Positions 7,926 to 42,919 are shown, counted from the stretch's first letter. The stretch is 50,660 nucleotides of DNA from Patescibacteria group bacterium (GCA_030917685.1 JAUPUG010000018.1:1-50660), one strand, 5' to 3'. Notes: generated by a model from the letters alone, not told the origin. A program made the numbers and translations.

Positions 7926-10900
7926 CTATGCGGCAACAGTAGGTACATCTGGAGTTGATGGAGCTACTGTAGGTGTCTCCCCTTTTCCAGATTTCCGTTT
8001 ATGTAATTCCCCACCTATATTCTTATATTCTTTTAATCCATTAATTAATTTTGAAGCATCAAGTATCTCAATTCCTGAATCACCAGCAGTACGATATTTT
8101 ATACCAAGCCAGAAGAGTGCTTTTTTAATTGTTGGGTCACTTGATTTTGTCCCCCAAACGTCCATTCGTTTGATTGATCTATTGAGAACATCTTGTATTT
8201 GCGCTGTGAATTCTCGAACTGCTTCTGGATCGTCGAAATCAACTTCGGCCTTCGACTCATCCCAATTCACCTTTCTCACACTATTATCTGTAGCACTGAA
8301 TCCACTATCCCACATTTCTATTGGAGCCTTACCTTCACGGAGGGTTGCTTCTGCTCGTCGTGAAGAAGTATATAATCGTGAATTTTTAGGCCCAGCATAC
8401 GCTACAGCTGTTCGATCTGAAGCATCTTTTCGTGATGTCTTCAATCTAGCACCCATTATTGAGTCTTCTCCAATTGCACTATTTGAATATCCACCCACGG
8501 CAGCGTAGGACTTCGCCCTCATTGCAAAATTTGCTCCCGAAGAATTTATATTATATTTCTTGAATCTCGACTGTACCTCGAGGTATTGGAAAAATCTAAT
8601 ACCCACCTGTAAAAGAGGTTTTCGAATATACGAATCTGGATCGAAATCAAGCTGACCCATATATGAATCTACATCCTTGTTGGTATCGAACTTTTCAATA
8701 AAGTTTGAAATATATTCTGGGGCAATACCTTTATTATCAGCATCGTTACTTACAAGTGATAATTCTGGTGCGCCTTCTCCTCTATCTCTTTGTCTAACTA
8801 ACACTGCATCATTTAGTAACTTTCTAACATAACCGATTTTTGCTCTTTCTCGTGGGACGACCTCATACATGAGTCTAACATTCATATCTGGATAATCTTT
8901 TTTGAATCTCTCAATTTCTTTCAACGTATCATCTGGCTTCACTGGAACACCAAGCTTATCTCGATCGGGATGGTTTACAAAAAGTACAAGTTCAAAAGAA
9001 TCCTTATCTGCTGTCTGTTTTGTATAAGATTCAAGAGAGTTATAAATACTTTCTCCTTCCTGGTGACCAGCAACAGGAATACATACTGCCAATCTGCATT
9101 TTTTATCCATAGGCCCCGCATCGGCTGCCATCTTTTTTAGAAGCTCTAGATGCTCTTTTTCATTAGAATTCAAATAATCATCGATTTCTTTTTTCTCATC
9201 CAACTCAGCAGAAGGATTCTCCTGAAGAGTTTTTGAAAGCCAAGTCTTCCGAGTCCTATCAATCATCTCTAGCTCACCACCCTCTACTCCACTGCCATAC
9301 ATAAAGTAATCTGAAGGTACTGCTATTGGCTTTTTATTACCAAGCCTTTCAAGAGGCTGTCTGCCAAATACTGGAATAAATGGAGGAGGCACCATATTTC
9401 TCTCAGGCTCTAATAGGTCGAACCGAGTTACAGTCTGAGGTACTGGCATTGAATCGGGATTGAAGCTTATAAACTTCGTTCGTGTTCCAACCAAACTCTT
9501 TACAGTCGAAAGACCTTTACCTTCATCAGTAGCCATGATTCTGAAATGCTCTAAACCGTCAGTTCCCGCACCCTGAGCATGTCCTACTTCGGCAAATTTT
9601 CCAATGAACTTAAGTTGCGGACCATCCTTTGTATCAACCGTTTTGAAGAACGTCTTTGCGATTTCGCTATTTGGGTCAATGATTGCATTACCATTCGCAT
9701 CGATAGGAACTTCGACGGGGTTAAACTGAGTGTCTCGAGAAAGTGAGAGCAGTAACTTTAACTTGCCTTGTGCGAGTGCATTCTTGATATCTACCGACAA
9801 TTCTCCGTGATGAGATCCACCAGCCTTCATTCCACCAATGCTGTATACAAAATTTCCATCCGCATCTATTCCTGACTTGTGATGACCACCCCATCCAAGC
9901 TTCAGTTCGTTTTTATCCGCACGAACTGTGTCATTGTCATACCAACCGTCTCGATGAATACGCTTGAATACGTCGGGATTATTTTCTACATACTGTTCTG
10001 ATGATAGGTTTTCTGAAACACCTGACTTCGCGAGATCTACTTCAGGTAGCATTGTTGTACCTGTACGCACGAGTACACCATGTTCACGAAGCATATCAAT
10101 AGACGCCTGATCTAACTGACCATTTTCAAATTTTACAGGATGAGGAAGTTCCTCTCCATCAATACTGAATCGATATATTGAAGGCGTTCCACCTGGGATT
10201 GGCTCCAAAGAAATTCCGTCTGGGAATTCGATAAGTTCCTTACCAGGAAGAACATCAATATGCTGTTCAACCAAGCTATCATCAATAGCTCTGCCTGCAA
10301 TATATTCCCTAAGAGCCTCAAGCACGGTTGCGTTCGGTTCATTATCATTTACCTCATTTCCAGTGAGAGACTCGACTCCTCTTTCCAAAAGACCCTGTTG
10401 GTCATCACTTGCGATAGCCATAATCTCCTGTACTCCCGCGCCGATAATTAGACCACTCGCTAAGCCTTTCAAAGCAGCAGCAGCGACTCTTCTTCTCTTC
10501 ATAAGTGAGAACATTTTGTTCTTCTGTTCAATACCGGACTCACCTGTCATAAATGCACCATTTCGAGATTCTAAAGCCGAGCCAAAGAACTCGTCGAAAT
10601 TTCTTGATCCAGACACTGGCACCGAACCAGCAGACGTATCCAAGATTCCAGACTCATACGCATCTCTCAATATCACCTTTGCTTGTGCCCTTGAAATATC
10701 AAGTTTAAGTCGTTCCTGTTCAACGCTTTTCGAATCTGTATAACTCAACAAATCAAGATCATGATTATCTGAAATCTGGATTCTGGATTCTGCTTGCAAT
10801 AATAGGCACATCGCATTATTGAATGCATCTGGCGAATCAATATTTTTGATATTTTCCAAAATCTGATCAGCGATATCTCCAGCATGTACTGTTTCGTATC

Positions 10901-11918
10901 GAACTTTTTCCATTTCCTCTCTACGATCCAATCCATTCTTTATAGATTTTCCTCCTTTTGCCATCATTCTAGAATGTTGTTTTCGCTCGTCTTCCACTTT
11001 GTGGCTTTCTCTCATCGCCCCAAAGGCTGACCCAAGGAGTGCTGACATACCAAAAGTACCCCATGCCAGAGCCTTACTTCGAGCAGCACTTTGACTTACT
11101 TTACCAATTACTGATCCTGCTATTGCAACTGCAGATGCAATAGTTGTTTCATCTACAAATCTTCCAACAAAACTATTTCTTATATATTCGGTGACCTTAT
11201 CAAAATTATTATATTGAGCTTCTGTTCTTACACCCAATCGCGCCTCGCCATATACTATCTCTACTTCTTTATCTAATTCTTCAATCGTAATATCGTGCTT
11301 AAACTTTTCCTTTAGTTCTTTTGCAACCTCGAGAAGATTGTCAGCAAATCTCACATTACTTACTTTCTCGTCGGTACCAGAATGTAGTGCTGTAATACGA
11401 CGTTTTTCCTCAGCAAACGCCTCATCAGTGAATGTATTGTGCTTATCATTAATATATTCAAGGACAAGCTCTTTAACATTAGAAACTAAGCTCCCCTCTA
11501 GGACTGTATCCTTCTCATCGTATGTTGATCTACTCTCTCCAGTATGCATAACGTCTTCATCTCTTAACTCTGAAGCAAAACGATCCAGTACAGCACTCAT
11601 GGCTTGTTGGTGCGCATTTTCTGAAGCTTCCTCATCAGAATATAGATTACCAGTCTCAAGAATTCTTTGACGCGCAAGACTTATTTCCTTTTGTCGATAA
11701 TATTCTCGAGCTAAATTGTGTTTCCAAATTTTCTTAAAAAAACCTCTTACGCCCGTAAGCTCACTCTTATCTTCTACTAAACGTTCTTCTGCTATATCTC
11801 TCGCTTGCTGTTCTATTGAATCTCCAGTGTCAACAATGACCAACTTCCTTTTTTTGGGATTTATCTCATCGAATTCTTCATGGTCTGCATCTCCGCTTAG
11901 ATATACTCGTTCGCTCAT
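7926..11918 (-). CDS. Giant (1330 aa) protein with two hydrophobic segments and a C-terminal GT-A (family-2-like) glycosyltransferase domain
   Basis: GT-A-like motifs at about nt 8440-9100: CRLAVCIPVAGHQEGESIYNSLESYTKQ, DxD-like SNDADN, GANFAMRAKSYAAVGGY, GEDSIMGARL. Hydrophobic stretches at about nt 11000-11160 and 10420-10500. The first roughly 930 aa have no motif I recognise. Confidence 0.75.
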   Translation of the reverse strand: MSERVYLSGDADHEEFDEINPKKRKLVIVDTGDSIEQQARDIAEERLVEDKSELTGVRGFFKKIWKHNLAREYYRQKEISLARQRILETGNLYSDEEASENAHQQAMSAVLDRFASELRDEDVMHTGESRSTYDEKDTVLEGSLVSNVKELVLEYINDKHNTFTDEAFAEEKRRITALHSGTDEKVSNVRFADNLLEVAKELKEKFKHDITIEELDKEVEIVYGEARLGVRTEAQYNNFDKVTEYIRNSFVGRFVDETTIASAVAIAGSVIGKVSQSAARSKALAWGTFGMSALLGSAFGAMRESHKVEDERKQHSRMMAKGGKSIKNGLDRREEMEKVRYETVHAGDIADQILENIKNIDSPDAFNNAMCLLLQAESRIQISDNHDLDLLSYTDSKSVEQERLKLDISRAQAKVILRDAYESGILDTSAGSVPVSGSRNFDEFFGSALESRNGAFMTGESGIEQKNKMFSLMKRRRVAAAALKGLASGLIIGAGVQEIMAIASDDQQGLLERGVESLTGNEVNDNEPNATVLEALREYIAGRAIDDSLVEQHIDVLPGKELIEFPDGISLEPIPGGTPSIYRFSIDGEELPHPVKFENGQLDQASIDMLREHGVLVRTGTTMLPEVDLAKSGVSENLSSEQYVENNPDVFKRIHRDGWYDNDTVRADKNELKLGWGGHHKSGIDADGNFVYSIGGMKAGGSHHGELSVDIKNALAQGKLKLLLSLSRDTQFNPVEVPIDANGNAIIDPNSEIAKTFFKTVDTKDGPQLKFIGKFAEVGHAQGAGTDGLEHFRIMATDEGKGLSTVKSLVGTRTKFISFNPDSMPVPQTVTRFDLLEPERNMVPPPFIPVFGRQPLERLGNKKPIAVPSDYFMYGSGVEGGELEMIDRTRKTWLSKTLQENPSAELDEKKEIDDYLNSNEKEHLELLKKMAADAGPMDKKCRLAVCIPVAGHQEGESIYNSLESYTKQTADKDSFELVLFVNHPDRDKLGVPVKPDDTLKEIERFKKDYPDMNVRLMYEVVPRERAKIGYVRKLLNDAVLVRQRDRGEGAPELSLVSNDADNKGIAPEYISNFIEKFDTNKDVDSYMGQLDFDPDSYIRKPLLQVGIRFFQYLEVQSRFKKYNINSSGANFAMRAKSYAAVGGYSNSAIGEDSIMGARLKTSRKDASDRTAVAYAGPKNSRLYTSSRRAEATLREGKAPIEMWDSGFSATDNSVRKVNWDESKAEVDFDDPEAVREFTAQIQDVLNRSIKRMDVWGTKSSDPTIKKALFWLGIKYRTAGDSGIEILDASKLINGLKEYKNIGGELHKRKSGKGETPTVAPSTPDVPTVAA

Positions 11919-12568: not shown

Positions 12569-14029
12569 TTAAAGCGCAATTGATTCTGGCAATTTTCTTA
12601 TAATTTTATTTAGAATATCGCTTTTTAATTGACCTTTTAATGGTTCAATATTTCCAGCTTGTGAATATGTTTTAATCATATCTTTAATTGTAAGGGCAAC
12701 AGCTTCCCCTTCATCACTGAGTATTTCAGCAAATTCTTCTATCAAAGGCTCAGCCTCTTTTAACTTTTCAAGGAGATCTGCTGCAGTCGGAGTAAGCATA
12801 TTACTTAGTTTATGTAAGTCACGGAAATACGCAGTAAACTTTTCCATTCCCACTTCTCTACTTTCTACTCCAGGATCTGTTTCTACTTCCTCGTGCACTT
12901 CTGTTTCAGAGCCATCTGCAGCTTCGGCTCGAAGCCCACCTGCATTAGCATAAATTGCATTTCCTTCAACTACCGCTGTTGATTCGACATTATCTATGTT
13001 TTCTGAGTCATTTTCAGGAAGTTCACCATTACCCGCAGCATCGTCTATTGTCTCAATTGCTTCTGCTGGTTCACCTTTTTTAGACAAACCCATACTATCT
13101 TTTAAGGATTGCCATTTTTGTGCTCTCGCATCTATCTTCGCAATCTGTTTACTTAGTTTAACCTTAGTCTTTTCAGCATTAGCTATCGATTTTTCAGTCA
13201 AAGATTTCTCTTGTTTGAGTTCAGCTAATTGTGATTCAATCATCCGAATATCATCTTTCAATACACCTAACTCTTTTGCTTTAGCTAGAGCATCTGTGTA
13301 TGTTTCAATATTTTGGGATACTTCCGTTAAGGCAGCATTAGCACCTTCTATTTGCTCAGAGAGCGTGATCATGCTCTCTTTCTTTTCAGCATATCCTGTC
13401 TTTTCATGTATTGAATCAATGCGCGCGTCTATTCTTCCAGAGAAAGCTCCCTCTGCCGCTTCGATGTTGGCGGACAAGGTCTCTATTTCGGAGGCACGCA
13501 AATCTCTCTCTCTGGCTGACTCTTTAGCTTTTTCTTCCTCTGCTAGAATTTCTTGGTCCCGCTCAGCAGCTTTTAAATCTCTGTTTTTTTCAAAAACAGC
13601 TATCAATCCAGGATTCTTCATACTTTTCAAGGCCTCATCAAAGTTACCAACTTCAGTTTTTTTGAGTTCACTAAATATACCAACATTTCTAGTGTGATTA
13701 TCTATTTGATATCCTATATCTGAAATTTCTTTTCGCTTTAAATTAATGAGATTATTGCTATTGTCTCTTGATTTTAAAAACCTCCACTTCTCAATAGTAC
13801 TCATTCTAAGACTCTCTACGACATCATCTTTCCAATTAATAGCTATATCCTTTAACTCTCCAAATTTTTCATCCACTAGATCAGCATGATTATTAAAATC
13901 CAACATTCTTCCGGCAAACTCTACACCTCTATTTGCTACGATTTTCACCTTTTCGAGAATAGGACTTTCATTCTCTGGCTTCTCATCAAAATCATTTGAT
14001 GCAAATTTTTCTGCAGTGATAGTTGTCAT
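12569..14029 (-). CDS. Acidic coiled-coil protein (486 aa), hypothetical
   Basis: Long ORF rich in E/K/A/L heptad-like sequence (AELKQEKSLTEKSIANAEKTKVKLSKQIAKIDARAQKW). No TM segment or signal peptide. First gene behind the promoter at 14049..14076. Confidence 0.75.
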   Translation of the reverse strand: MTTITAEKFASNDFDEKPENESPILEKVKIVANRGVEFAGRMLDFNNHADLVDEKFGELKDIAINWKDDVVESLRMSTIEKWRFLKSRDNSNNLINLKRKEISDIGYQIDNHTRNVGIFSELKKTEVGNFDEALKSMKNPGLIAVFEKNRDLKAAERDQEILAEEEKAKESARERDLRASEIETLSANIEAAEGAFSGRIDARIDSIHEKTGYAEKKESMITLSEQIEGANAALTEVSQNIETYTDALAKAKELGVLKDDIRMIESQLAELKQEKSLTEKSIANAEKTKVKLSKQIAKIDARAQKWQSLKDSMGLSKKGEPAEAIETIDDAAGNGELPENDSENIDNVESTAVVEGNAIYANAGGLRAEAADGSETEVHEEVETDPGVESREVGMEKFTAYFRDLHKLSNMLTPTAADLLEKLKEAEPLIEEFAEILSDEGEAVALTIKDMIKTYSQAGNIEPLKGQLKSDILNKIIRKLPESIAL

Positions 14030-14048: not shown

Positions 14049-14076
14049 ATTATATATCAGATATCTGTATATTGAA
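14049..14076 (-). promoter_or_regulatory. Promoter TTCAAT-16-TATAAT (TG-extended) for the four-gene operon
   Basis: Minus strand reads ...TTCAATatacagatatcTGATATATAAT, followed by a 19-nt leader to the ATG at 14029. Confidence 0.5.
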
Positions 14077-14110
14077 ATAGATTACATGGAGATATAAAAA
14101 ACAAGTAAAC

Positions 14111-14175
14111 AAAAACTCCGAGCTTCTCAGATAGTACACAATGATTGAAAGTGTAAAATCTTTTGAAACTCGGAG
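14111..14175 (-). terminator. Possible terminator with long structured loop after lipoprotein gene
   Basis: Minus strand reads CTCCGAG ... CTCGGAG, a 7-bp closing helix, followed by TTTTTG. The loop is about 46 nt, so this is a weak call. Confidence 0.35.
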
Positions 14176-14204
14176 AGGTTTGGAAACAGTGGACCGTATG
14201 AAGT

Positions 14205-14630
14205 CTACCGACAACGACGTTCCCAACGTCCTGTGAAGAAGTTGAAGAACAGAGGTTCAGGAGGCAACGGACGTCCCATCGGTGGACAGAAGTTTGCCTG
14301 GCCTGGACCCGCCCAGTTTTGACGATGCTGCAACGGGAACCCAAACATTGGAGATGGCTGTTGCCAACCCCGTTGTGGATAGCAACCGTGTTGCACTGGT
14401 ACTGGATGCCGGATGACCCTGCTTTGGCTGTAGATGCCGGGGTGTCCGGTTCTACAACCTGGGTCAAGCACAATGTTCCTTTGGAATGTGTGTTGACCTG
14501 GAAGGCCGGTAATTGGCCTGTAGTGTTCGGGCTGGCCTGGACCAAAAGTACCGCAGCGGATAAATCCGTCTGATGCACATGATGAGAGCAGCGCACAAGC
14601 GACTGTAAGACAAAGAGCTAAGTATTTCAT
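14205..14630 (-). CDS. Putative lipoprotein (141 aa), Pro/Gly/His/Gln/Arg/Trp-rich
   Basis: N-terminus MKYLALCLTVACALLSSC is a signal peptide with lipobox L-S-S-C. The ORF directly follows the promoter at 14691..14718. GC is about 52-53%. The overlapping 179-aa ORF in another frame lacks these signals. Confidence 0.55.
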   Translation of the reverse strand: MKYLALCLTVACALLSSCASDGFIRCGTFGPGQPEHYRPITGLPGQHTFQRNIVLDPGCRTGHPGIYSQSRVIRHPVPVQHGCYPQRGWQQPSPMFGFPLQHRQNWAGPGQANFCPPMGRPLPPEPLFFNFFTGRWERRCR

Positions 14631-25956: not shown

Positions 25957-26457
25957 CTATTGTCTCTTTGTGACAATATAGTTGAAGTCTTTTTCTAACA
26001 CTGGCTGGATTGATAGTCGGCTCCCTTTTTGGCAGACCATCATGTTTTTGAGTTTAGGGTCTAATTTAATCTCAGAAAGAGTAAATGGAGTCTCAAACTT
26101 TTTGACAAAAGAAAAATCAACAAGCATCCACGTAGGTATATATTCTGTATTACTTTTTTCTGCTAATTTCTTTTTAGAGACTGATGTTGGATCAAAATGT
26201 TCATCCTTTGGCTCATGCGCTGTTGCATCAGGATATGGAAGACTTGAAACTTTCGCTACTCCATATACACCATTAGGATTTTTCTTATCGGTAGAACTTG
26301 AATGATAAAATAGGGCTAAATCACCAATCTTCATATGGTCACGCATAAAATTACGTGCTTGAAAATTACGCACACCCGCCCAAGGAGTTTTTCCATCTCG
26401 TTGTAAATCATCGATAGAATAACAATCTCCTTCAGATTTTATAAGCCAGAATTTCAT
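25957..26457 (-). CDS. EVE (PUA-like) domain protein
   Basis: MKFWLIKSEGDCYSIDDL...WAGVRNFQARNFMRDHMKIGDLALFYHS matches the EVE/DUF55 N-terminal pattern. Confidence 0.7.
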   Translation of the reverse strand: MKFWLIKSEGDCYSIDDLQRDGKTPWAGVRNFQARNFMRDHMKIGDLALFYHSSSTDKKNPNGVYGVAKVSSLPYPDATAHEPKDEHFDPTSVSKKKLAEKSNTEYIPTWMLVDFSFVKKFETPFTLSEIKLDPKLKNMMVCQKGSRLSIQPVLEKDFNYIVTKRQ

Positions 26458-26523: not shown

Positions 26524-27801
26524 CTATTTTTCTAATAGTGAAAAGCTTACAATTCTTACATTGTTTGCAGTATCAATACTTGCAACAGCTACAGCTGTAT
26601 ATGAAGATTGACCATTTGAATACTGAACAACAGCTCGATCTGGGCCATCAAAAGTCACATCAGTGACCTCATACGATGAGCTCGACTTTGGTATAGCTAG
26701 CTTATTGATATTTGCAGCGATGTATGAACCAACAATATCTCTTTGTGATTGGTTAAAAGGTGTAACTACTCGAGTTACCTTTGGAGGCGTCTTTACAGCG
26801 ACTGGTTTTGCAGGAGTTGTTGGTGTTGCCTGTGTTATTGGTTTTGCAGGTACAGATGTGTTTGGTTTTTGAGCAGTGCTAGTCCCAACTGTAGGCTTAG
26901 CTACAACTGGAAACATTGATGGTTTATTTGTAGTCGTTGCAGGCTGAGCTGATGCATCTTTATTTGATACAGTCTTCTCCGTATTATCTTTGCTTGGCAA
27001 ATACAATGCTGTGTACCAATAGTAACCGCCACCAGCCAAAAGTAATAGCACGACTATCATACTGATAATAAGAGCAAGTGTACCCTTGTGACTTTTTGGT
27101 GCTTTATACTGATTATTGAGGAGTGCATTTACTTCATTTCCAAGCTTTGCTGCAGTAATATTCGCAGATGGAGCTGGCGGAATACCACTAGCAGAAGAAT
27201 TAAAAGACTGCGCCACATTTGCACTTGTTGGATTCGTATTTACTTGATTATTTTGAAGTGGACTTCCGACTTTATAGCCAGAAGTAAAACCCACTGGTGG
27301 AACAGGTGATGAAGATGCAGGCGAAACGGGCGAAAAAGACAGAGATGAAAGGGATGCTGTCGCTGGTGGTGTATATGGTTTTGGCGTTGATGTTGGTGTT
27401 GGTGTTGGTGTTGGAGCTGTATATGGTTTAAAAACTGATGACACTGGCGCAACAGGTTGTGATTGTGGCACACTTGCATATGGAGCAACCGCTGGAGGTG
27501 TAGATACTGGAGGAGGAGTCTGCTTGTCAATATTTGGATTCATTAGACGATCAAGAGCAGATGGAGCATGAGCAGAAAATGGAGTTGAAGTTTGACTCGA
27601 ATTTTGATTTAAAGTTTGCGCCGAAAAAGAATTTGCGGTAGGCAAATTGGCAGGAGGAGTAGCGATCGGTGATGGAGCTGTTGCGTTCACTCTAGGTGTA
27701 GATGTAAGCGGCTGTCCTGGTTTTGGCATACCACGGAATACGGGCTCAAGAGGCTCATTATTTGAAGCGTTAATATTGTTTGTGTTTCTTGTTGGTTCCA
27801 T
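26524..27801 (-). CDS. Pro/Ser/Thr-rich bitopic membrane protein (425 aa)
   Basis: About 235 aa of low-complexity P/S/T/A/N sequence including PTPTPTPTSTPKP. One TM segment (LALIISMIVVLLLLAGGGYYWY). A C-terminal domain of about 90 aa. Starts 19 nt after the lexA stop. Confidence 0.7.
   Translation of the reverse strand: MEPTRNTNNINASNNEPLEPVFRGMPKPGQPLTSTPRVNATAPSPIATPPANLPTANSFSAQTLNQNSSQTSTPFSAHAPSALDRLMNPNIDKQTPPPVSTPPAVAPYASVPQSQPVAPVSSVFKPYTAPTPTPTPTSTPKPYTPPATASLSSLSFSPVSPASSSPVPPVGFTSGYKVGSPLQNNQVNTNPTSANVAQSFNSSASGIPPAPSANITAAKLGNEVNALLNNQYKAPKSHKGTLALIISMIVVLLLLAGGGYYWYTALYLPSKDNTEKTVSNKDASAQPATTTNKPSMFPVVAKPTVGTSTAQKPNTSVPAKPITQATPTTPAKPVAVKTPPKVTRVVTPFNQSQRDIVGSYIAANINKLAIPKSSSSYEVTDVTFDGPDRAVVQYSNGQSSYTAVAVASIDTANNVRIVSFSLLEK
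27386..27415 (-). repeat. Hexanucleotide (TGTTGG)n microsatellite encoding (PT)n
   Basis: gttgatgttggtgttggtgttggtgttgga lies within the Pro-rich membrane protein gene. Confidence 0.8.
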
Positions 27802-27820
27802 AATACCTACTAGTATACCA

Positions 27821-28399
27821 CTATCTGAATTTTCGTATAACTGCTTTTACCACAGCTGCAATTTTCATATCATACTCAGGATAAATGTCTTTGAAGTTTT
27901 TGTTTGCAGGTTGCAGGTAAGGACGGCCCTTTTTATCGATACGATAATATTTCATAGTCCATCCTCCATCAACTTCTGCAATAACTATCTCACCAACTCG
28001 TGCACTAGTGCGTCGCTCAACTAAGACCATATCACTCTCAGCGATATGAGCTTCTATCATCGACTCACCTTTTACCTCAAGCATGTATGTAGAGTCTTTT
28101 GAATCACCGAGCAGGAAATCTTCTATACTCGTTGCATCGAGCATCTCTTCTTCAGCCACTGTCGGCATACCAGCTTCGACGAGTCCGAGGAGTGGCACAT
28201 CTCCGTGTAGTCTAGATGGAGTCAACTTCCCTTTTGAATCTTTTTCAAAAATCCCTTCTTCAACAAGTTTATTGATGAGCTTATAGACTGCATTCTTAGA
28301 CTTGAAGCCGACAAGATTCATGATCTCGCTATAGCCCGGCACTCGTTTGTGCGCCTTGTAGAAGTCTACTATTTTCTTTTTGTATGAGTCGTATGACAT
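27821..28399 (-). CDS. lexA: LexA repressor (S24 peptidase)
   Basis: N-terminal wHTH (GYSEIMNLVGFKSKNAVYKLINKLVEEG). Cleavage region LGLVEAGMP. Catalytic Ser in VKGESM. Lys in GWTMKYY. Length of 192 aa. Confidence 0.9.
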   Translation of the reverse strand: MSYDSYKKKIVDFYKAHKRVPGYSEIMNLVGFKSKNAVYKLINKLVEEGIFEKDSKGKLTPSRLHGDVPLLGLVEAGMPTVAEEEMLDATSIEDFLLGDSKDSTYMLEVKGESMIEAHIAESDMVLVERRTSARVGEIVIAEVDGGWTMKYYRIDKKGRPYLQPANKNFKDIYPEYDMKIAAVVKAVIRKFR

Positions 28400-28510
28400 A
28401 TTTGTGAGACTGCACAGAAATTAATTCATATGCGATGTATCTATTGTATCAGAATTCTATGTAAGAACCTGCGGTCGAACCACCAGACTTTTCTAAGGCG
28501 TTAAAGTGGA

Positions 28511-28714
28511 CTAGAAAAGAAAGCTAGCCATTGCAAATGTTCGTGCAAGTGAAGCTTCACTTTCGATTCGTCGAAGTTGTGATACGAGTGCTCGGTGTCG
28601 TGTAGATTCTTTTTCATAAGAAATTCCTTTTACAATCTTCTGGTCAATCTTTTTGTTAATTGATCGGAGCTCTCTATTGATTGCAAACATAAGTGTCATT
28701 CTTTTCATATTCAT
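28511..28714 (-). CDS. Small basic hypothetical protein (67 aa) downstream of a LexA-box promoter
   Basis: This is the only ORF between the promoter at 28784..28813 and lexA, and it is on the same strand. No family recognised. Coding status is not proven. Confidence 0.4.
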   Translation of the reverse strand: MNMKRMTLMFAINRELRSINKKIDQKIVKGISYEKESTRHRALVSQLRRIESEASLARTFAMASFLF

Positions 28715-28783
28715 TTTGATTAGTGATTATCTTGTTTTTAAATTTTTGGCGCCGGTCTCTGCGTCCTGTTTCTGTATGTTTAT

Positions 28784-28813
28784 AGTATAGGTGAACTATG
28801 GTTCACCTGTCAA
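28784..28813 (-). promoter_or_regulatory. Sigma-70-type promoter (TTGACA-18-TATACT) for small ORF/lexA operon
   Basis: Minus strand reads TTGACA (28813-28808), an 18-nt spacer containing the LexA box, then TATACT (28789-28784). Confidence 0.6.
28791..28806. promoter_or_regulatory. Cheo-type LexA (SOS) box: GTGAACTATGGTTCAC
   Basis: Perfect 16-bp palindrome containing GAAC-N4-GTTC, the Gram-positive LexA/DinR consensus core. It lies in the spacer of the minus-strand promoter upstream of the small ORF and lexA. Confidence 0.7.
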
Positions 28814-28880
28814 GAAAACAATAAAAGGGGAGTGTGTATAACTTTAGAATATGTGTTAAATTAAGAGTGTAATCGAACTC

Positions 28881-30077
28881 ATGAATACTCCTTACGAAGT
28901 TGCCCTACAAAAAAATATTTGGAAATATACAATTGCCGCAGTCGCAAACAAAAGAATTTTTGTAGCAATAATCGGCGCATACTATTTGACCGTCCAAGAC
29001 GTTACCCTTCAGACTATCGGTCTCATTACCCTATTTAGTAGTCTCTCTAGTTTTTTGTTTGAAATACCCAGTGGATATGTCTCTGATAAAATTGGGCACA
29101 AACAAGCGCTTGTTGTTTCTCGAGTATTGTTGTTAATTTCCTCAATATGTTTCTTTACGGCAGAGAACGTAACCATGCTTATCGTCGCAGCGGTCGCCAT
29201 GAGTGCAGGATTTGCATTCAATAGTGGCACAGGTAGCGCATTCATGCACGAGACCTTGTCTGAGCTTAAACGTGATCATGAGTATTCAGCTGTTATGGGA
29301 AAAGTAAGTGCTGTCGGTTTTGCGGTGCCGGTTATCCTAACTGTATTAGTTCCCTTCCTTGTTTCGATTTCATATAAGATACCCTTTTTGTTAATGGCAA
29401 TAGTAGATTGCATCGGACTCATCGCGGTCATGAGTCTGACAAAGCCAAGGATGAGCCAAGCCCATGTTGAAGAGGTGCAAGCTTCTAATTTTAAACAAGT
29501 GATGCAGGAAGCATTTCGGATGCAGTATTTTACAATCGCTTTCTTTTCAGGAATCATAGGCGCTATGTTGCTTAGTGTCAGCGCATTCCGATCTCCATAT
29601 CAGATCTTTGTTGGGACGCCAGTTATATGGCTTGGAGTTATCGTTGGAATCGGAAGACTTTTAGCCTCGCTCATGCTAGCCAACAGTAAGAAAATAGAAA
29701 AATATTTTACATTCAAAAGCTTCTTTCGCGTAGAATATTTAATACACACCACCATAATATTCTGCCTCGGCCTAACTCAAAATGTATATCTTGTTACGTT
29801 ACTCCTCATTGCAAGCAGTGCATTCCATTGGGGTCTGAACAAGATTGATGAAGGGTACCAACTAAAGGTTATGGGTAAAACAAAATTCAAAGCGACGCTC
29901 CTATCTGTAGGCTCACAAATCGAGAGTCTCCTTCAGGCGGCATTTGCTTTCACGCTTGGCTGGATAATCCAAAAATATTCCTTTGCAGTGGGATATATGA
30001 GCATTTCTCTTTTCTGTTTCGTAATTCTAACATTCTTGTATATACGAATGGAGAGGATATATAAAGAAGTAATATAG
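28881..30077 (+). CDS. MFS transporter
   Basis: About 12 hydrophobic segments. MFS motif-A-like PSGYVSDKIGHKQAL after TM2. Confidence 0.75.
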   Translation: MNTPYEVALQKNIWKYTIAAVANKRIFVAIIGAYYLTVQDVTLQTIGLITLFSSLSSFLFEIPSGYVSDKIGHKQALVVSRVLLLISSICFFTAENVTMLIVAAVAMSAGFAFNSGTGSAFMHETLSELKRDHEYSAVMGKVSAVGFAVPVILTVLVPFLVSISYKIPFLLMAIVDCIGLIAVMSLTKPRMSQAHVEEVQASNFKQVMQEAFRMQYFTIAFFSGIIGAMLLSVSAFRSPYQIFVGTPVIWLGVIVGIGRLLASLMLANSKKIEKYFTFKSFFRVEYLIHTTIIFCLGLTQNVYLVTLLLIASSAFHWGLNKIDEGYQLKVMGKTKFKATLLSVGSQIESLLQAAFAFTLGWIIQKYSFAVGYMSISLFCFVILTFLYIRMERIYKEVI

Positions 30078-30079
30078 TT

Positions 30080-31996
30080 TTACTCAAGATTTTCTAAGAC
30101 ATCTTTCAATCGGCATGAGCCTACTACATGCATTTCATTCATTGATCTTGTAAGTGCAATATAGAGGAGATCTTTGTATATTTGATGTTTCTCTTCCTTG
30201 AAACTTGGGTGTGTAGAGTATCTTTGCGCTAGATCAAACATCTCGTTAGAAACTCCTACTAGACAGACAATATCGAACTCAACACCTTGAGATTCTGCAA
30301 TTGTGAGAAATTTTACGCCGGTAATAGTACTCACACCCGCACTAGTGCCAGCGCCCGCATCTTTAAATCGCTCCTTAAATTTTGCGAGAAGTTCTGAATT
30401 AAAACTCAAGATACCAATACTTTTTTCAGCAGATTTATTTTTCAAAATATGTTCCACATATTCAAAGACTTTAGTATCTGCATCACGATCACTCCCCGAC
30501 TCTTCAAATACTTTTTCTTGGACAACTGGACCTTCTTTGAGTGCTTCTGGTATCTCTACTTTGTAACCCAAACCTCTCGCATATTCTAAAATTTGTTTGG
30601 TGTTTCGATATACCTTATGAAGCCTGATTTGTCTGTCGAGTGCAATGTTTTCGCTGAAATCCTCCCATTTCTTAGTAGTGCCATGTTGGATTTTTTGTGA
30701 AAGATCCCCAACATAGATTATAGATTCTGTTTTTGAACTAACACACGATTTAAAGAGTTGTAACTGTTCAGGTAAATAGTTTTGAAATTCATCAACCACC
30801 ACAAGCGAGTAGTCCAACATATCAACACGAGTATGTTTAACAATTTTACCCATTCTCATTACTCGATTCGATTCAGTCTCTATCTTGAGTTTTTCTTTAT
30901 GTTTTTTAAAGATCATAAGCGCAAGGGTAATATCCAAACGATCAAGCGTTCGTCTTTTTATTTGTTCTTCAAAGCTATTCTTCAATGATCCAGAATTACT
31001 CTTTGAATATAGATTTTGGAGTGTGTAAAAAATATTCTTACTCCAAGTTATTGGCGTACCATGCATATTGAGCTTTTCACCACCATCTACGATACTATTC
31101 TTTATGTTCAATTTATCTAGTTCACATTCGGTATTTTGAACATATGTTACATTGTCTAATTTTAATATTGCACTTGCCCATTCAAAAAAAGTTGTAATTT
31201 TAACGTTATGAATTCCAAGGTCTGGCAACAAGTGTGAAAAATATTCTTTCGTACCAGAGTCCTGTACAAACACGATAATTGAATTGCTTGGATATAAATC
31301 CATGCTTTCCGGTGATTGAACAAGATATGCTACACGGTGCAGAGCGAGCGTAGTCTTTCCGGAGCCAGCTGGACCAGCTATCGCAAATGGACCAAAGTGA
31401 GAAGCACGGATTACATCATCTTGAGCCTTTTCCATTATCTCGACAATTTCTGGCAATACAAAAGCACCCTTCTTGGCAGAAAAGTGTTCTTGATAAATTA
31501 GTTCTCTCGGATGCTCTTCTGTTTCATGAGCATAGAACACAACCTTGCCATTAACAATCATGTACTGCTCTTTTTCATGAATAGTAATTTCTTTTATCGT
31601 GCCGTTTGGGAGCTTGAATGATGTTTGACCAGGATTAGCAAAACGAACCACCGCGATTGGCGCGACCCATGAATATATATTTTGTTCAGAGAATTCATAT
31701 TTGCCGAAATGAATTTCTTTCTTATTTCGAAATCGTACATCAACTGTATTGTGAGCAATCACACATTTGAAGAAAAAAGGAGAGGATTCAATAGCTTGAA
31801 GTTCTTTGTGTCGAGCCAATGCAGTCAAACGCAAGATCATCGCATGCTCTCGTTCGCCTTTTCGAAGCTTCAAAATTTCGGTTTCAGGTTTAAAAGCAAT
31901 CGGCTTTATTTTCTCATACTGTTCAGCGACAGCCTGCTTCACTGAATCAATTTTTGTATATAACTTTTCTAGCAACTCTTCTTTGAAGGTCTTCAT
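30080..31996 (-). CDS. UvrD/Rep-superfamily helicase, HelD-like
   Basis: N-terminal helical region, then SPFFFKCVI...IHFGKYEF...IYSWVAPIAVVRF, which resembles the HelD pattern pYFgRidf...yIGk...dWRaPia. Walker A AGPAGSGKTTLALHRVAYL. Also VVDEFQN and C-terminal LYIALTRSMNEM. Confidence 0.65.
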   Translation of the reverse strand: MKTFKEELLEKLYTKIDSVKQAVAEQYEKIKPIAFKPETEILKLRKGEREHAMILRLTALARHKELQAIESSPFFFKCVIAHNTVDVRFRNKKEIHFGKYEFSEQNIYSWVAPIAVVRFANPGQTSFKLPNGTIKEITIHEKEQYMIVNGKVVFYAHETEEHPRELIYQEHFSAKKGAFVLPEIVEIMEKAQDDVIRASHFGPFAIAGPAGSGKTTLALHRVAYLVQSPESMDLYPSNSIIVFVQDSGTKEYFSHLLPDLGIHNVKITTFFEWASAILKLDNVTYVQNTECELDKLNIKNSIVDGGEKLNMHGTPITWSKNIFYTLQNLYSKSNSGSLKNSFEEQIKRRTLDRLDITLALMIFKKHKEKLKIETESNRVMRMGKIVKHTRVDMLDYSLVVVDEFQNYLPEQLQLFKSCVSSKTESIIYVGDLSQKIQHGTTKKWEDFSENIALDRQIRLHKVYRNTKQILEYARGLGYKVEIPEALKEGPVVQEKVFEESGSDRDADTKVFEYVEHILKNKSAEKSIGILSFNSELLAKFKERFKDAGAGTSAGVSTITGVKFLTIAESQGVEFDIVCLVGVSNEMFDLAQRYSTHPSFKEEKHQIYKDLLYIALTRSMNEMHVVGSCRLKDVLENLE

Positions 31997-33916: not shown

Positions 33917-35728
33917 TTAATGTCCCGCAACAAACGTAAGAGCCTTACCAACAGCACCTCCACGACCTGTTCGGCCGATTCGGTGAACATAGTCATCGTA
34001 TGTCATTGGAAGCTCGTAGTTGATTACGTGAGACACGTTTTTAACGTCGATTCCTCGAGCAGCAACGTCAGTCGCTACAAGAATGTTCAATGCGTCACTC
34101 TTGAATGATGCAAGAGCCTTCTGTCGCTGGTAGTGATTTTTATCACCGTGAATAGAAGCAGCTTTGTGACCAAGTTTAATGAGGTCTTCAGTGATTCGCT
34201 CTACACCACTCTTAGTCTGTCCGAAGATGAGAACCTTTTTGAATTCTTCTCGGTCAGTAAGAAGTCCGTGAAGCTTTTCCATTTTGTTTTCACCTCGTCC
34301 AACTCGTACAACGTCCTGATCAACACTCTTTGAAGTATCGCCAGTTTTTACTGAAATTGTAACAGGCTCGTTAAGGAATTCATGAACAAGATTCTGGATT
34401 TCTTTTGACATTGTCGCTGTAAAGAAAAGAGTTTGTCTTGTCTTTGGCATCTGTCCGATGATAAATCGCATTTCATTAATGAATCCCATATCAAGCATTC
34501 GGTCAGCTTCATCAAGAACCACGTTAGTGAATTTTGAGAAGTTGATATATTTTCGTTCACCAAGATCTTTTAGACGTCCAGGTGTACCGATAATAAAGTT
34601 GTTGAAATATTTGAGGTCCATAATCTGCTTTCGAATATGAGCTCCACCTACACAACACACTGAGTAAATCTTTGTATCTCGAATAAGAATAAGAAGTTCT
34701 TCTTCAATTTGCACAGCGAGTTCTCGCGTAGGTGCCATGATAAGAATTTCTTCTTTAGGATTATTGATAACTTTGTTTACAAGTGGAATAAGAAAGGCCA
34801 TAGTCTTTCCAGTACCAGTATTCGCGATACCGATAACATCTTTTCCTTCAAGAACTACTGGAATAGCCTGATCTTGAATAGGACTTGGATTTACATAACC
34901 CTTGAGTGCAATTCGTTTTTTGATATCTTCTGCGATATCAAAATCATTAAAAGTATGAGTTGGTTTGTATGCAGCAGCTTTTTTAGCTTCGTCAGTGATG
35001 TGAGATGTGTCTGCAATCTTGTTGATGAATTTACTTACGTCAATATGCTGACCTCGTCCACCACCTCGTGAACCTCCACGTCCTCCGCCAAATCCTCCTC
35101 GTCCGCCAGATGAGTATCCACCACGACCTCCTGATGAATAACCTCCGCCAGAACTATATCCACCTCGTCCACCTGAAGAGTAACCTCCACGCGATCCACC
35201 GTATGAAGATGATCCTCCTGAAGAGTATCCACCTCTCGAAGGAGCTGATGAATAAGAAGAACCTCCAGAACTATATCCTGAAGATCTTGGTGCAGACGAA
35301 TATCCACCCTGTGAAGAGCTTGATCGGCCTGAACCGTATGAAGTCTGTGAGCCACTGTATGATGGTCGTGAAGACGAATATGAAGAACCTCCAGAACGTG
35401 GAGATGATGGGTAAGAAGAACCAGATCTTGAAGGCGCACCTGCACCTGAAGATCGAGAACTTGTTCCATATGAAGTTTGTGATCCACTATATGATGGTCG
35501 TGATGATCCACCAGATGAGTATGAAGATCCAGATGAATATCCTCCTCGTGAAGAAGAAGTTTCTGATGATCCTGGTCGACTACTTGGTCGAGCATTTTTC
35601 ATAGAAGATTTTGGTACAAATTGTTTTGCAAACGAAAAAGCGTCTGCTTTAGGAGCTGGTCGAAAAGTTGGTTTTGGTCCCCGTGAGGCTCCTGCTCCAC
35701 GAGAAAAACTTGATTTATTATTGTTCAT
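33917..35728 (-). CDS. DEAD-box RNA helicase with about 235-aa N-terminal Ser/Gly/Tyr/Arg low-complexity region
   Basis: Q motif PSPIQ. Motif I ANTGTGKTMAF. Motif II VLDEADRML. Motif III TATM. Motif VI HRIGRTGRGG. N-terminus consists of SYSGSQTSYG, GGYSSGGRGGYSSGG and RGG repeats. Confidence 0.92.
   Translation of the reverse strand: MNNNKSSFSRGAGASRGPKPTFRPAPKADAFSFAKQFVPKSSMKNARPSSRPGSSETSSSRGGYSSGSSYSSGGSSRPSYSGSQTSYGTSSRSSGAGAPSRSGSSYPSSPRSGGSSYSSSRPSYSGSQTSYGSGRSSSSQGGYSSAPRSSGYSSGGSSYSSAPSRGGYSSGGSSSYGGSRGGYSSGGRGGYSSGGGYSSGGRGGYSSGGRGGFGGGRGGSRGGGRGQHIDVSKFINKIADTSHITDEAKKAAAYKPTHTFNDFDIAEDIKKRIALKGYVNPSPIQDQAIPVVLEGKDVIGIANTGTGKTMAFLIPLVNKVINNPKEEILIMAPTRELAVQIEEELLILIRDTKIYSVCCVGGAHIRKQIMDLKYFNNFIIGTPGRLKDLGERKYINFSKFTNVVLDEADRMLDMGFINEMRFIIGQMPKTRQTLFFTATMSKEIQNLVHEFLNEPVTISVKTGDTSKSVDQDVVRVGRGENKMEKLHGLLTDREEFKKVLIFGQTKSGVERITEDLIKLGHKAASIHGDKNHYQRQKALASFKSDALNILVATDVAARGIDVKNVSHVINYELPMTYDDYVHRIGRTGRGGAVGKALTFVAGH
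35020..35600 (-). repeat. Low-complexity coding repeats (SYSG / GGYSSGGRGG units)
   Basis: Degenerate short repeats run throughout the 5' third of the DEAD-box gene. They generate long spurious ORFs in the other frames. Confidence 0.8.
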
Positions 35729-41098: not shown

Positions 41099-42919
41099 TT
41101 AACGCGAACCAGTTAAGAAATCCCTTATACGCTCGTCGATTCTGACATCCTGAGCACGTAGGGGATTTTTTAGTGTAATACCTTGGAGACTTCTCACTCG
41201 TGAAAGTGCCACATAGGCCTGTCCATGAGCGAATGTTCCTTTTCCGAAATCGATAATAGCCGTATCAAATGTCTTACCTTGACTCTTGTGTATTGTAACT
41301 GCCCAAGCAAGTTTGATAGGTATCTGTGTATATTTTCCTACAACCTCAGAGTCGAGTTGATCGTGCAGTTCGTCATATTCATAACGGACCATCTCCCATG
41401 TATCGCCAATCACCTCCTCTACTCGCCCATCCTCAAAACGAACACGGACTGACGCATCCATGAGTTTTTCAACAGTACCAATATCTCCGTTGACCCATTT
41501 TCCACTTGGATCATTTTTGAGCGTCATCACTTGTGCACCAAGTTTGAGCACTAGCTGTTCTGGCGCCGGAGCATTCTTTTGTTCGAATCTTCCAACCAAA
41601 GCGCCTTTATATGTTTTTGATGGAGTTTTAATTTCTTCTAACTTTTCAGTGTTAATCTTATCAGCCAAAGCATTTGTAGTTACCAAATATACTGTGAGTT
41701 TTTTAATACTCGCATCAGCGATATCTGAATTTCCAACCGCAGAGACACCCGCCGAGTCAGTCAATGTCTTCATTCCAAAACTGAGTCCTTTAATGCCACT
41801 CAAATCGAATTCTTTCTTTAGGTCTTGAATAAGTTCCTCTTTTTTCGACATCATCTTTTCCTTCACTACAATGTTTCCCTCCTCATCTCGTTCTTCATCA
41901 TCAATAGGTATGCCTTCATCATTTACATATAATGAATCTGACACTACGATATCTGCCGTCTGCACGTCCGTCATTGTCACTTTTTTGCCATTCACCTCAA
42001 GACACATTCGATTTATATATTCAACATGTTGCATATCTGCTTCACCTGTTCTTATCTTATCAAGAATATCTATAAACACTGAATCTTGCTGACGATACAC
42101 CTGCGTCAATTCAATTACTTGAAATCCTCCCTGCTTGTAAGCAGGAGCATCAAAAAAGTATGGACTTTCGTACTTTGTCTCAAAAATATATCCTTCTCCA
42201 GGACCTACCACCGGCGGAAGTTGGAACAAATCTCCGATAACAACTATCTGTACTCCGCCAAATGGCTCTGCAGGATTCTTACCATTTAAACGCAGGAATC
42301 TATCGATACAATCAAACAGGTCTGCACGCACCATAGATATCTCATCAATAATAAGCATATCAATCTTCTTATACATTTTTTGATCTACTTCTGCTGTAAT
42401 TTTCTTCACGTCTTGCACCGTCATGCCGATTTTAAATTTGAAAAACCCATGGATTGTTTGACCACGTACATTGAGTGCAGCAACGCCTGTTGGTGCAACC
42501 ACTACTACATTTTTCTTTGTAGTGTTTCTAAAATATCCAAGCAATGTCGACTTACCAGTACCAGCTCGCCCTGTAATAAAAAGATTCTCGCCAGAGTTTT
42601 CCAAAGTGTCTATAACATCTTTTGATTCATCAGACAGCTTAAGATTTTTGTAAAATTCTTTCTCAGCTTCTTCTTTTTTGATTTTTTGTTTTTGTCCTTG
42701 ATCTTTATCAATTTCAAATGACATGCCGTCTATAATCTTCTTTCGAGCATCAACCTTAGCGTATTTTGAGAATTTTGCACCGAAACTCGAACTTGCCGAT
42801 GCGCCTGTTTTCGCACCAAAATCACCTCTCCGTGCAGCAAAACTTGCTGAAGGGATTTTTTTGCTCGGCCATTTTGAGTTTGGGTTCGAGTTTGAAGATG
42901 AAGAATTTCCGAAGGTCAT
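41099..42919 (-). CDS. Pif1/RecD-like SF1B DNA helicase
   Basis: Walker A ITGRAGTGKSTLL. Motifs APTGVAALNVRGQTIHGFF, LIIDEISMV, PFGGVQIVVIGDLFQLPPV, TIHKSQGKTFD and YVALSRVRSLQGI. Confidence 0.85.
   Translation of the reverse strand: MTFGNSSSSNSNPNSKWPSKKIPSASFAARRGDFGAKTGASASSSFGAKFSKYAKVDARKKIIDGMSFEIDKDQGQKQKIKKEEAEKEFYKNLKLSDESKDVIDTLENSGENLFITGRAGTGKSTLLGYFRNTTKKNVVVVAPTGVAALNVRGQTIHGFFKFKIGMTVQDVKKITAEVDQKMYKKIDMLIIDEISMVRADLFDCIDRFLRLNGKNPAEPFGGVQIVVIGDLFQLPPVVGPGEGYIFETKYESPYFFDAPAYKQGGFQVIELTQVYRQQDSVFIDILDKIRTGEADMQHVEYINRMCLEVNGKKVTMTDVQTADIVVSDSLYVNDEGIPIDDEERDEEGNIVVKEKMMSKKEELIQDLKKEFDLSGIKGLSFGMKTLTDSAGVSAVGNSDIADASIKKLTVYLVTTNALADKINTEKLEEIKTPSKTYKGALVGRFEQKNAPAPEQLVLKLGAQVMTLKNDPSGKWVNGDIGTVEKLMDASVRVRFEDGRVEEVIGDTWEMVRYEYDELHDQLDSEVVGKYTQIPIKLAWAVTIHKSQGKTFDTAIIDFGKGTFAHGQAYVALSRVRSLQGITLKNPLRAQDVRIDERIRDFLTGSR

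Follow-up and report, generated by a model that had tools for sequence, protein, structure and literature searches.

A conserved small gene of an unnamed family precedes lexA in a probable autoregulated SOS operon of Candidatus Paceibacterota

Autoregulation of LexA through a GAAC-N4-GTTC box is textbook knowledge. In Bacillus subtilis and other bacteria with a Gram-positive-type LexA (DinR), the corresponding Cheo box, CGAAC-N4-GTTCG, overlaps the lexA promoter and is also found at recA. The B. subtilis lexA gene is monocistronic and divergent from yneA. In other cases, too, a small fast-evolving gene stands beside lexA under the control of a LexA box, as for YneA in Bacillus, SosA in Staphylococcus, ChiZ (Rv2719c) in Mycobacterium, SidA in Caulobacter, and SulA in Pseudomonas, where sulA is co-transcribed with lexA. 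For Patescibacteria, an SOS network with a LexA motif and regulon was reportedly described by comparative genomics by Sanchez-Osuna, Barbe and Erill in 2017 (Environ Microbiol 19:3465; cited in PMC8565304). Here we analyze a lexA locus from an uncultivated Patescibacteria bacterium with a tiny genome that belongs to Candidatus Paceibacterota. The locus lies in a stretch of 50,660 nucleotides (nt), GCA_030917685.1 JAUPUG010000018.1:1-50660, hereafter the window, and all coordinates without a locus label are counted from its first letter.

The locus resembles the Gram-positive-type systems in that a GAAC-N4-GTTC palindrome overlaps the promoter ahead of lexA, an arrangement that implies autoregulation. 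It differs from them in three respects. The conserved arms are longer than those of the Cheo box, GTGAAC/GTTCAC, the box is placed precisely in the spacer between the -35 and -10 hexamers, and lexA is the second gene, behind a small gene, unlike in B. subtilis. The operator alone is ordinary and, given the 2017 study of the Patescibacteria SOS network, this part of the system may already be described. The new element is the first cistron, a candidate SOS gene without a family name in the protein-family libraries searched. We consider it highly probable, from the comparisons given below, that the locus is an autoregulated SOS operon of a Paceibacterota bacterium (Patescibacteria, or candidate phyla radiation, CPR). 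Its features are as follows.

28808..28813, minus strand: -35 hexamer TTGACA, from the promoter scan; TTGACA or TTGCAG in 78 distinct related promoters.
28791..28806, no strand assigned: putative LexA operator (SOS box) GTGAACTATGGTTCAC, GTGAAC-TATG-GTTCAC, which fills the promoter spacer.
28784..28789, minus strand: -10 hexamer TATACT, from the promoter scan; TATACT or TATAAT in relatives.
28511..28714, minus strand: first cistron, a basic protein of 67 amino acids (aa) from an unnamed family, characterized by its homologs, by the ratio of nonsynonymous to synonymous substitution rates (dN/dS) and by structure prediction.
28400..28510, minus strand: gap of 111 nt between the small open reading frame (ORF) and lexA, with a possible extended -10 element inside.
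27821..28399, minus strand: lexA, 192 aa, probable N-terminal winged-helix region and C-terminal S24 autopeptidase (PF00717, TIGR00498, 3K2Z).

The promoter of the operon agrees with the consensus at 11 of 12 positions and ranks as the top promoter-like site of the region 27700-29000 in the promoter scan. Its hexamers are separated by 18 nt (28807..28790 on the minus strand), and this spacer is occupied exactly by the palindrome. The GAAC-N4-GTTC core is perfect at 28793-28804 and belongs to a longer palindrome, AGGTGAAC-TATG-GTTCACCT, that spans 28789-28808. The perfect 16-mer is found once in the 50.6-kb window versus 0.00 copies expected from 100 shuffles. The bare 12-mer GAAC-N4-GTTC is not rare, with two copies observed versus 0.7 expected. 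The second of them, GAACAGAGGTTC at 14247-14258, is the sole other perfect core in the window; as an SOS box it was rejected as a chance match inside the ORF 14057-14596 (minus strand), without the GT/AC extension.

A preliminary description of this DNA had placed a Cheo-type box at 28791-28806 within the spacer of a minus-strand TTGACA-18-TATACT promoter, a basic 67-aa ORF (28511-28714) first behind that promoter, and lexA as the second gene 111 nt past the small ORF. All these coordinates hold, the identity of lexA is confirmed, and the isoelectric point (pI) of the small protein is 11. The same description had reported a one-mismatch copy of the box, GAACctgcGGTC, at 28465-28476, in the gap ahead of lexA. 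The sequence is indeed present, but sites with at most one mismatch are as frequent as expected by chance (15 in the window versus 19.3 expected), and the copy is missing from the homologous gap of the closest relatives, loci L001 and L006. For both reasons we rejected it as a second box. A GC-rich hairpin (GGCGCCGGTC...GCGTC, 28748-28765) can be observed in the predicted 5' leader of the small ORF. It is terminator-like on the plus strand in the promoter and terminator scan, and it is kept in L006 and partly in L001. No structured RNA was recognized by Rfam in the leader or in the gap, and the hairpin likewise had no Rfam match.

A scan by LexA alignment, with one genome per species, yielded 80 loci, all of them from Patescibacteria and mostly labeled Candidatus Paceibacterota, Parcubacteria, Taylorbacteria or Zambryskibacteria; their LexA proteins are 57-92% identical to that of the window. 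The comparison drew on 84 loci anchored on LexA and on six anchored on the small protein (L001-L003 and L095-L097). In about 90 related loci GTGAAC-N4-GTTCAC occupies the same promoter position ahead of the pair of the small ORF and lexA. In the first pass the palindrome was found between the -35 and -10 hexamers in 75 loci, and a wider search window added five more. About 80 of the 82 intact loci carry a perfect copy. The only imperfect operators, in L067 and L078, have one mismatch each (GTGTAC), and three loci in which the contig ends short of the promoter stand outside the intact set.

Base conservation of the operator and promoter was computed over 78 distinct perfect sites. It amounts to 0.17-0.49 bits in the N4 spacer, to roughly 0.7-1.7 bits in the promoter hexamers, and to about 0 bits in the flanks beyond the promoter. 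The arms are fixed in this set by the choice of perfect sites, and the telling figure is the proportion of perfect copies among the intact loci. The arms are often extended to GGTGAAC/GTTCACC in the related promoters. The loci anchored on the small protein give the same picture: in each of the six, the small gene is preceded by a perfect operator and immediately followed by an S24 gene, and the flanking genes are unrelated. This pattern is a clear phylogenetic footprint of a putative operator, and its conservation across related loci places the site well beyond chance.

The same palindrome is observed at recA. Here the evidence comes from metagenome contigs and not from the window's own genome. 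We scanned for the 16-mer at a distance of 231-291 nt ahead of codons for GPESSGKTT, the Walker A motif of RecA, and seven recA contigs (L085-L091) match this linked pattern. The recA promoter of L091 reads TTTGACAG-GTGAACAGCTGTTCAC-TATACT, with the layout TTGACA-G-GTGAAC-N4-GTTCAC-TATACT, so that the operator lies in the spacer as at the lexA operon. In the other six (L085-L090), a perfect operator is found just upstream of the -35 hexamer TTGACA, and a second one, perfect or with one mismatch, fills the spacer. A double operator is also present in L099, a contig from a marine sediment metagenome that was found by protein similarity and not by the pattern. The RecA protein of L085 matches exactly the record MBU1017651.1, 'recombinase RecA [Patescibacteria group bacterium]'. 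The LexA-anchored loci themselves contain no recA. Because the palindrome is common to the lexA and recA promoters in Patescibacteria, the defining signature of an SOS box, it behaves, by this distribution, as an SOS box in this group. Of the genes at which the preliminary description had suggested looking for GAAC-N4-GTTC (recA, uvrA and similar ones), recA bears the palindrome on Patescibacteria metagenome contigs; further sites of the 16-mer are absent from the window and, beyond chance, from the surroundings of lexA in relatives. The two recA operators of L085-L090 and L099 are 14 nt apart, as in L086:3481-3526, the outer copy being a perfect GTGAACAAAAGTTCAC. The double-operator layout suggests that repression of recA may be cooperative, or tighter than that of lexA.

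The second gene of the operon encodes the LexA protein. The S24 domain is recognized by PF00717 (E 3.8e-22, residues 69-184), and residues 11-191 align with positions 16-202 of the NCBIfam lexA model TIGR00498 with 102.9 bits. The best sequence match in the PDB is LexA from Thermotoga maritima (3K2Z, residues 12-190), and the next ones are LexA from E. coli and other LexA proteins. Like Gram-positive-type LexA and the T. maritima protein, it combines a probable winged-helix N-terminal region with an S24 domain, an Ala-Gly site and a Ser/Lys dyad. Across 81 orthologs, neither the cleavage site A76-G77 (VEAG) nor the catalytic S113 ever varies, and K150 is kept in 80 of them. The segment G31-F-K-S-x-N-A-x-x-K40, at the expected position of the recognition helix, is also invariant. 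By these residues, the 192-aa protein is a canonical LexA with an intact Ser/Lys dyad and Ala-Gly site.

The near-invariant operator arms match this invariant recognition helix, and the match bears on the question of which protein reads the palindrome. The palindrome could be the operator of another regulator, possibly of the small protein itself, which would then autoregulate the operon. The small protein is very basic and helical, and it is always encoded directly behind the palindrome. However, GAAC-N4-GTTC is the established operator core of LexA in Gram-positive-type bacteria, and the recA promoters bear the same 16-mer, the signature of an SOS box. In addition, the recognition helix of LexA is invariant like the operator arms, whereas identity within the family of the small protein falls to about 30%. 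The two-helix hairpin predicted for the latter has no recognized DNA-reading motif. An operator for a regulator other than LexA is thus very unlikely.

An even less credible explanation, to which we give almost no weight, is that the pair is an immunity module of a mobile element or prophage, made of a CI-like S24 repressor and a small partner. S24 repressors with small neighbors are common in prophages and integrative elements, the score of the LexA protein is just below the NCBIfam cutoff, and the genes upstream of the pair vary by locus. On the other hand, each locus holds a single copy of the pair, which is present in 80 or more species-level genomes, all of one phylum, among housekeeping genes such as gyrB, murC-like, SMC, RNase III and cysS, with no integrase or phage genes nearby and no PHROG match. 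Both genes are co-directional and not divergent, the best sequence relatives in the PDB are cellular LexA proteins aligned over their full length, and the operator is also found at recA.

The first cistron is conserved together with lexA. A search with a hidden Markov model detected a homolog of the small protein beside lexA and on the same strand in all 84 LexA-anchored loci. The pair is kept whichever gene anchors the search, in 84 of 84 loci via LexA and in 6 of 6 via the small protein. The order of the genes is swapped in L067:9949-10987 (JACOYX010000016.1, Candidatus Sungiibacteriota), where the one-mismatch operator (GTGTAC) is followed by lexA and then, about 210 nt downstream, by the small gene. 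Since the pair is kept despite this change of order, its linkage survives rearrangement.

A profile search of 1.84 billion cluster representatives returned 309 clusters at E<=0.001, nearly all of 50-100 aa, and the family therefore counts at least 309 clusters at 50% identity. A second database contributed 433 proteins, the named ones being 'hypothetical protein' from Patescibacteria. Members that share as little as about 30% identity still agree in frame, in length (mostly 57-78 aa) and in a core motif, E-x4-N-x2-I-D-x2-I-x2-G-x2-Y-x6-H, and dN/dS is 0.05-0.2 where synonymous sites are unsaturated. An untranslated leader or a chance ORF is ruled out by dN/dS and by the conservation of the ORF. 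Judged by this pattern of purifying selection, the small ORF is a real, selected and translated gene. The protein has no match in Pfam, NCBIfam or PHROGs nor, with a sequence profile, in the PDB. Among 45 family members we found no Pfam domain even at E<=1, and in particular no LysM domain, no SulA (PF03846) and no Sda family.

The proposal of the preliminary description, an autoregulated module with a novel small SOS gene as its first cistron, is strongly supported by the comparative evidence, that is, by operator conservation, gene pairing, purifying selection, the LexA residues and the recA boxes. In such an operon, a LexA dimer bound to the 16-bp GTGAAC-N4-GTTCAC site in the -35/-10 spacer would block RNA polymerase. 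DNA damage would activate RecA, and RecA-stimulated self-cleavage of LexA at Ala76-Gly77 would lift the repression. The promoter would then fire, producing the small protein and new LexA from one transcript, and the new LexA would reset the switch to its off state. The gap between the small gene and lexA in relatives has a median of about 14 nt, which makes co-transcription from the operator-controlled promoter the simplest reading; the 111 nt of the window are unusually long.

The structure of the small protein was predicted with AlphaFold2. The model consists of two long antiparallel helices, 3-29 and 34-66, with a mean predicted local distance difference test score (pLDDT) of 85; pLDDT exceeds 90 for residues 11-40 and is about 58-70 in the tail. 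The invariant polar residues N20, D24, Y33 and H40 are grouped near the tip of the hairpin. The C-terminal 12-16 residues form a conserved hydrophobic, aromatic and Ser-rich tail of the type W-F-x-R/K-S-F-x-F-x-S-x-F-L-F. The median pI of the family is 10.7, and none of 82 family members has a transmembrane segment (maximum 19-residue Kyte-Doolittle mean <=0.93). The prediction is thus of a helical hairpin that is soluble and very basic and ends in a hydrophobic C-terminal tail. In a Foldseek search against the PDB, it resembled generic helical hairpins alone, such as the arm of seryl-tRNA synthetase and D-63 of SSV1, none of them at E<=0.001. The C-terminal [ST]-F-[LMI]-[FL] loosely recalls a sliding-clamp-binding motif, although it has no Gln, and this similarity is speculation only.

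By its position beside lexA under a LexA box, the gene is comparable to yneA, sosA, chiZ, sidA and sulA. Unlike the products of these genes, the small protein has no transmembrane helix and no LysM or SulA domain, and its gene lies upstream of lexA on the same strand, neither divergent nor downstream. The class of membrane-anchored inhibitors is excluded by the absence of a transmembrane segment. Another comparison is offered by Sda, the replication-stress checkpoint protein of B. subtilis, and by Kil of phage lambda. Both are small cytoplasmic helical hairpins, induced when DNA or its replication is under stress, each of which binds one target: a sporulation kinase for Sda and FtsZ/ZipA for Kil. 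Sda is removed through its C-terminal residues. The predicted two-helix hairpin with a distinct C-terminal tail is like Sda and Kil in shape and logic only. There is no sequence similarity to them in Pfam, and their targets are not indicated here.

Our committed guess is that the small protein is SOS-induced and acts by binding a partner. As to its role, we tentatively prefer an effector of an SOS checkpoint, cytoplasmic and short-lived, whose function would be analogous to that of SulA, Kil or Sda, and we give this possibility less than even weight. This guess is drawn by analogy from the neighbors of lexA in other phyla (sulA, yneA, sosA, chiZ) and from the hairpin checkpoint proteins Sda and Kil. 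The conserved tip of the hairpin would bind the target, and the tail would serve as a degron for turnover or as a docking peptide.

Nearly as likely as such an effector, though doubtful when taken singly, is an accessory factor of LexA or RecA; the remainder falls to something else. The small protein might stabilize LexA on its operator as a co-repressor, or it might modulate the self-cleavage of LexA or the RecA filament. Small proteins that are genetically linked to a LexA-type repressor and work with it are known, namely DdrR with UmuDAb in Acinetobacter and gp7 of phage GIL01 with LexA, and DinI or RecX act with RecA. The strict pairing of the two genes across hundreds of clusters, with short gaps and a linkage kept despite the swap of order, implies stoichiometric co-production, typical of interacting partners. 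The very basic pI of about 11 is compatible with contact to DNA, and N20, D24, Y33 and H40 near the hairpin tip suggest one specific conserved partner. However, searches with Pfam, PHROGs, PDB sequences and Foldseek revealed no likeness of sequence or fold to known accessory factors, and the LexA protein, with all its canonical residues, should not need a helper. The linkage to the repressor recalls DdrR and gp7, but no homology to either was detected via Pfam or PHROGs families; moreover, ddrR is divergent and gp7 is phage-encoded. Sequence backs membership neither among the effectors nor among the accessory factors.

Several observations weigh against an autoregulated SOS operon with a checkpoint effector as its first product. 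LexA binding, damage induction and co-transcription are steps that we infer from sequence comparison. No further 16-mer site with at most two mismatches is present in the window, and in the 1.3 Mb around lexA in relatives additional sites do not exceed chance: outside the lexA promoters there is one stray site with at most one mismatch (L083:14519) versus roughly three expected, a rough estimate. Because of this absence of other sites, no regulon is shown for the window genome or its closest relatives. The operator-bearing recA contigs can be placed only as 'Patescibacteria group', and recA of other CPR lineages (L092-L094 and L098) has no box. The TIGR00498 score of the LexA protein, 102.9, is below the curated equivalog cutoff of 110.95, and its N-terminal part has no match to Pfam LexA_DNA_bind (PF01726) at E<=0.01. 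The former is a narrow miss, expected for a deep-branching CPR lineage, and we read the latter as divergence in a deep lineage and not as absence of the domain.

The gap between the two genes provides a further point of this kind. It contains an extended -10-like element, TGATACAAT (28451..28443, minus strand), which recurs only in L001 and L006 and is not among the hits of the consensus promoter scan. The element may be a second, operator-free lexA promoter in this subclade, and with such a promoter the expression of lexA in the window genome would be partly independent of that of the small gene. As for the checkpoint effector, neither a transmembrane segment nor a LysM or SulA domain is present in the small protein, the fold search gave no informative match, and its tie to division or replication consists only of gene position and control by the box.

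The surroundings of the pair are less uniform than the pair itself. One further gene may belong to the operon of the window:

26524..27801, minus strand: gene of a 425-aa Pro/Ser/Thr-rich protein, which starts 19 nt past lexA; one hydrophobic segment, no Pfam domain.

Homologs of this gene are found downstream of lexA in L001, L003 and L005-L007 only, and it may be co-transcribed with the SOS operon, perhaps in this subclade only. The gene of an EVE (PUA-like) domain protein, located at 25957-26457 (minus strand) in the window, is found downstream of lexA in eight related loci, L015 and L009 being examples, and in L002:4810-5268 it starts 9 nt past lexA. By this position, the EVE gene may be a member of the SOS operon in some lineages. 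A DUF805 gene comes after the EVE gene in 12 loci. On the other side of the box, the divergent gene of a major facilitator superfamily (MFS) transporter does start with its ATG at 28881, 75 nt from the box, as the preliminary description had it. Its suggestion that the box may also affect this gene finds no support: none of the 84 related loci has an MFS homolog, and no plus-strand promoter overlaps the box. L001, a locus without an MFS gene, also contains the stretch that separates the box from the start of this gene in the window.

The remaining genes of the window include SMC, RNase III, NusB, GyrB, a Mur ligase and a sortase, and are ordinary chromosomal ones. Three large ORFs, 7926-11918, 12569-14029 and 4584-5921 (all on the minus strand; 1330, 486 and 445 aa, respectively), have no Pfam domain at E<=1e-6, which is typical of CPR genomes. 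Three helicase genes, HelD/UvrD-like (30080-31996), PIF1-like (41099-42919) and DEAD-box (33917-35728), are also encoded on the minus strand, none with a LexA box. In L097 a PIF1 helicase gene and a DoxX gene directly border the pair of the small gene and lexA; in the window both gene types are 13 kb off.

We can tentatively put forward a broader interpretation, to which we assign a less than even chance. The small protein may be the founder of a new phylum-wide SOS family and an obligate partner of LexA in Paceibacterota. As a checkpoint factor, a soluble hairpin whose C-terminal tail serves for docking or as a degron, it could make up most, perhaps nearly all, of the output of a minimal SOS response in these reduced genomes. 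Alternatively, it could be a second subunit of the repressor system that tunes the binding or cleavage of LexA. These organisms, with genomes of about 1 Mb, have lost most of their regulation, and a gene that they retain strictly together with the SOS repressor is likely to have a key part in the response to damage. The small gene offers a concrete candidate, ready to be cloned, for the means by which CPR bacteria halt or adjust the cell cycle once DNA is damaged or, alternatively, for a LexA partner of a kind not seen before. Surrogate hosts would allow a test of either idea without cultivation of the source organism.

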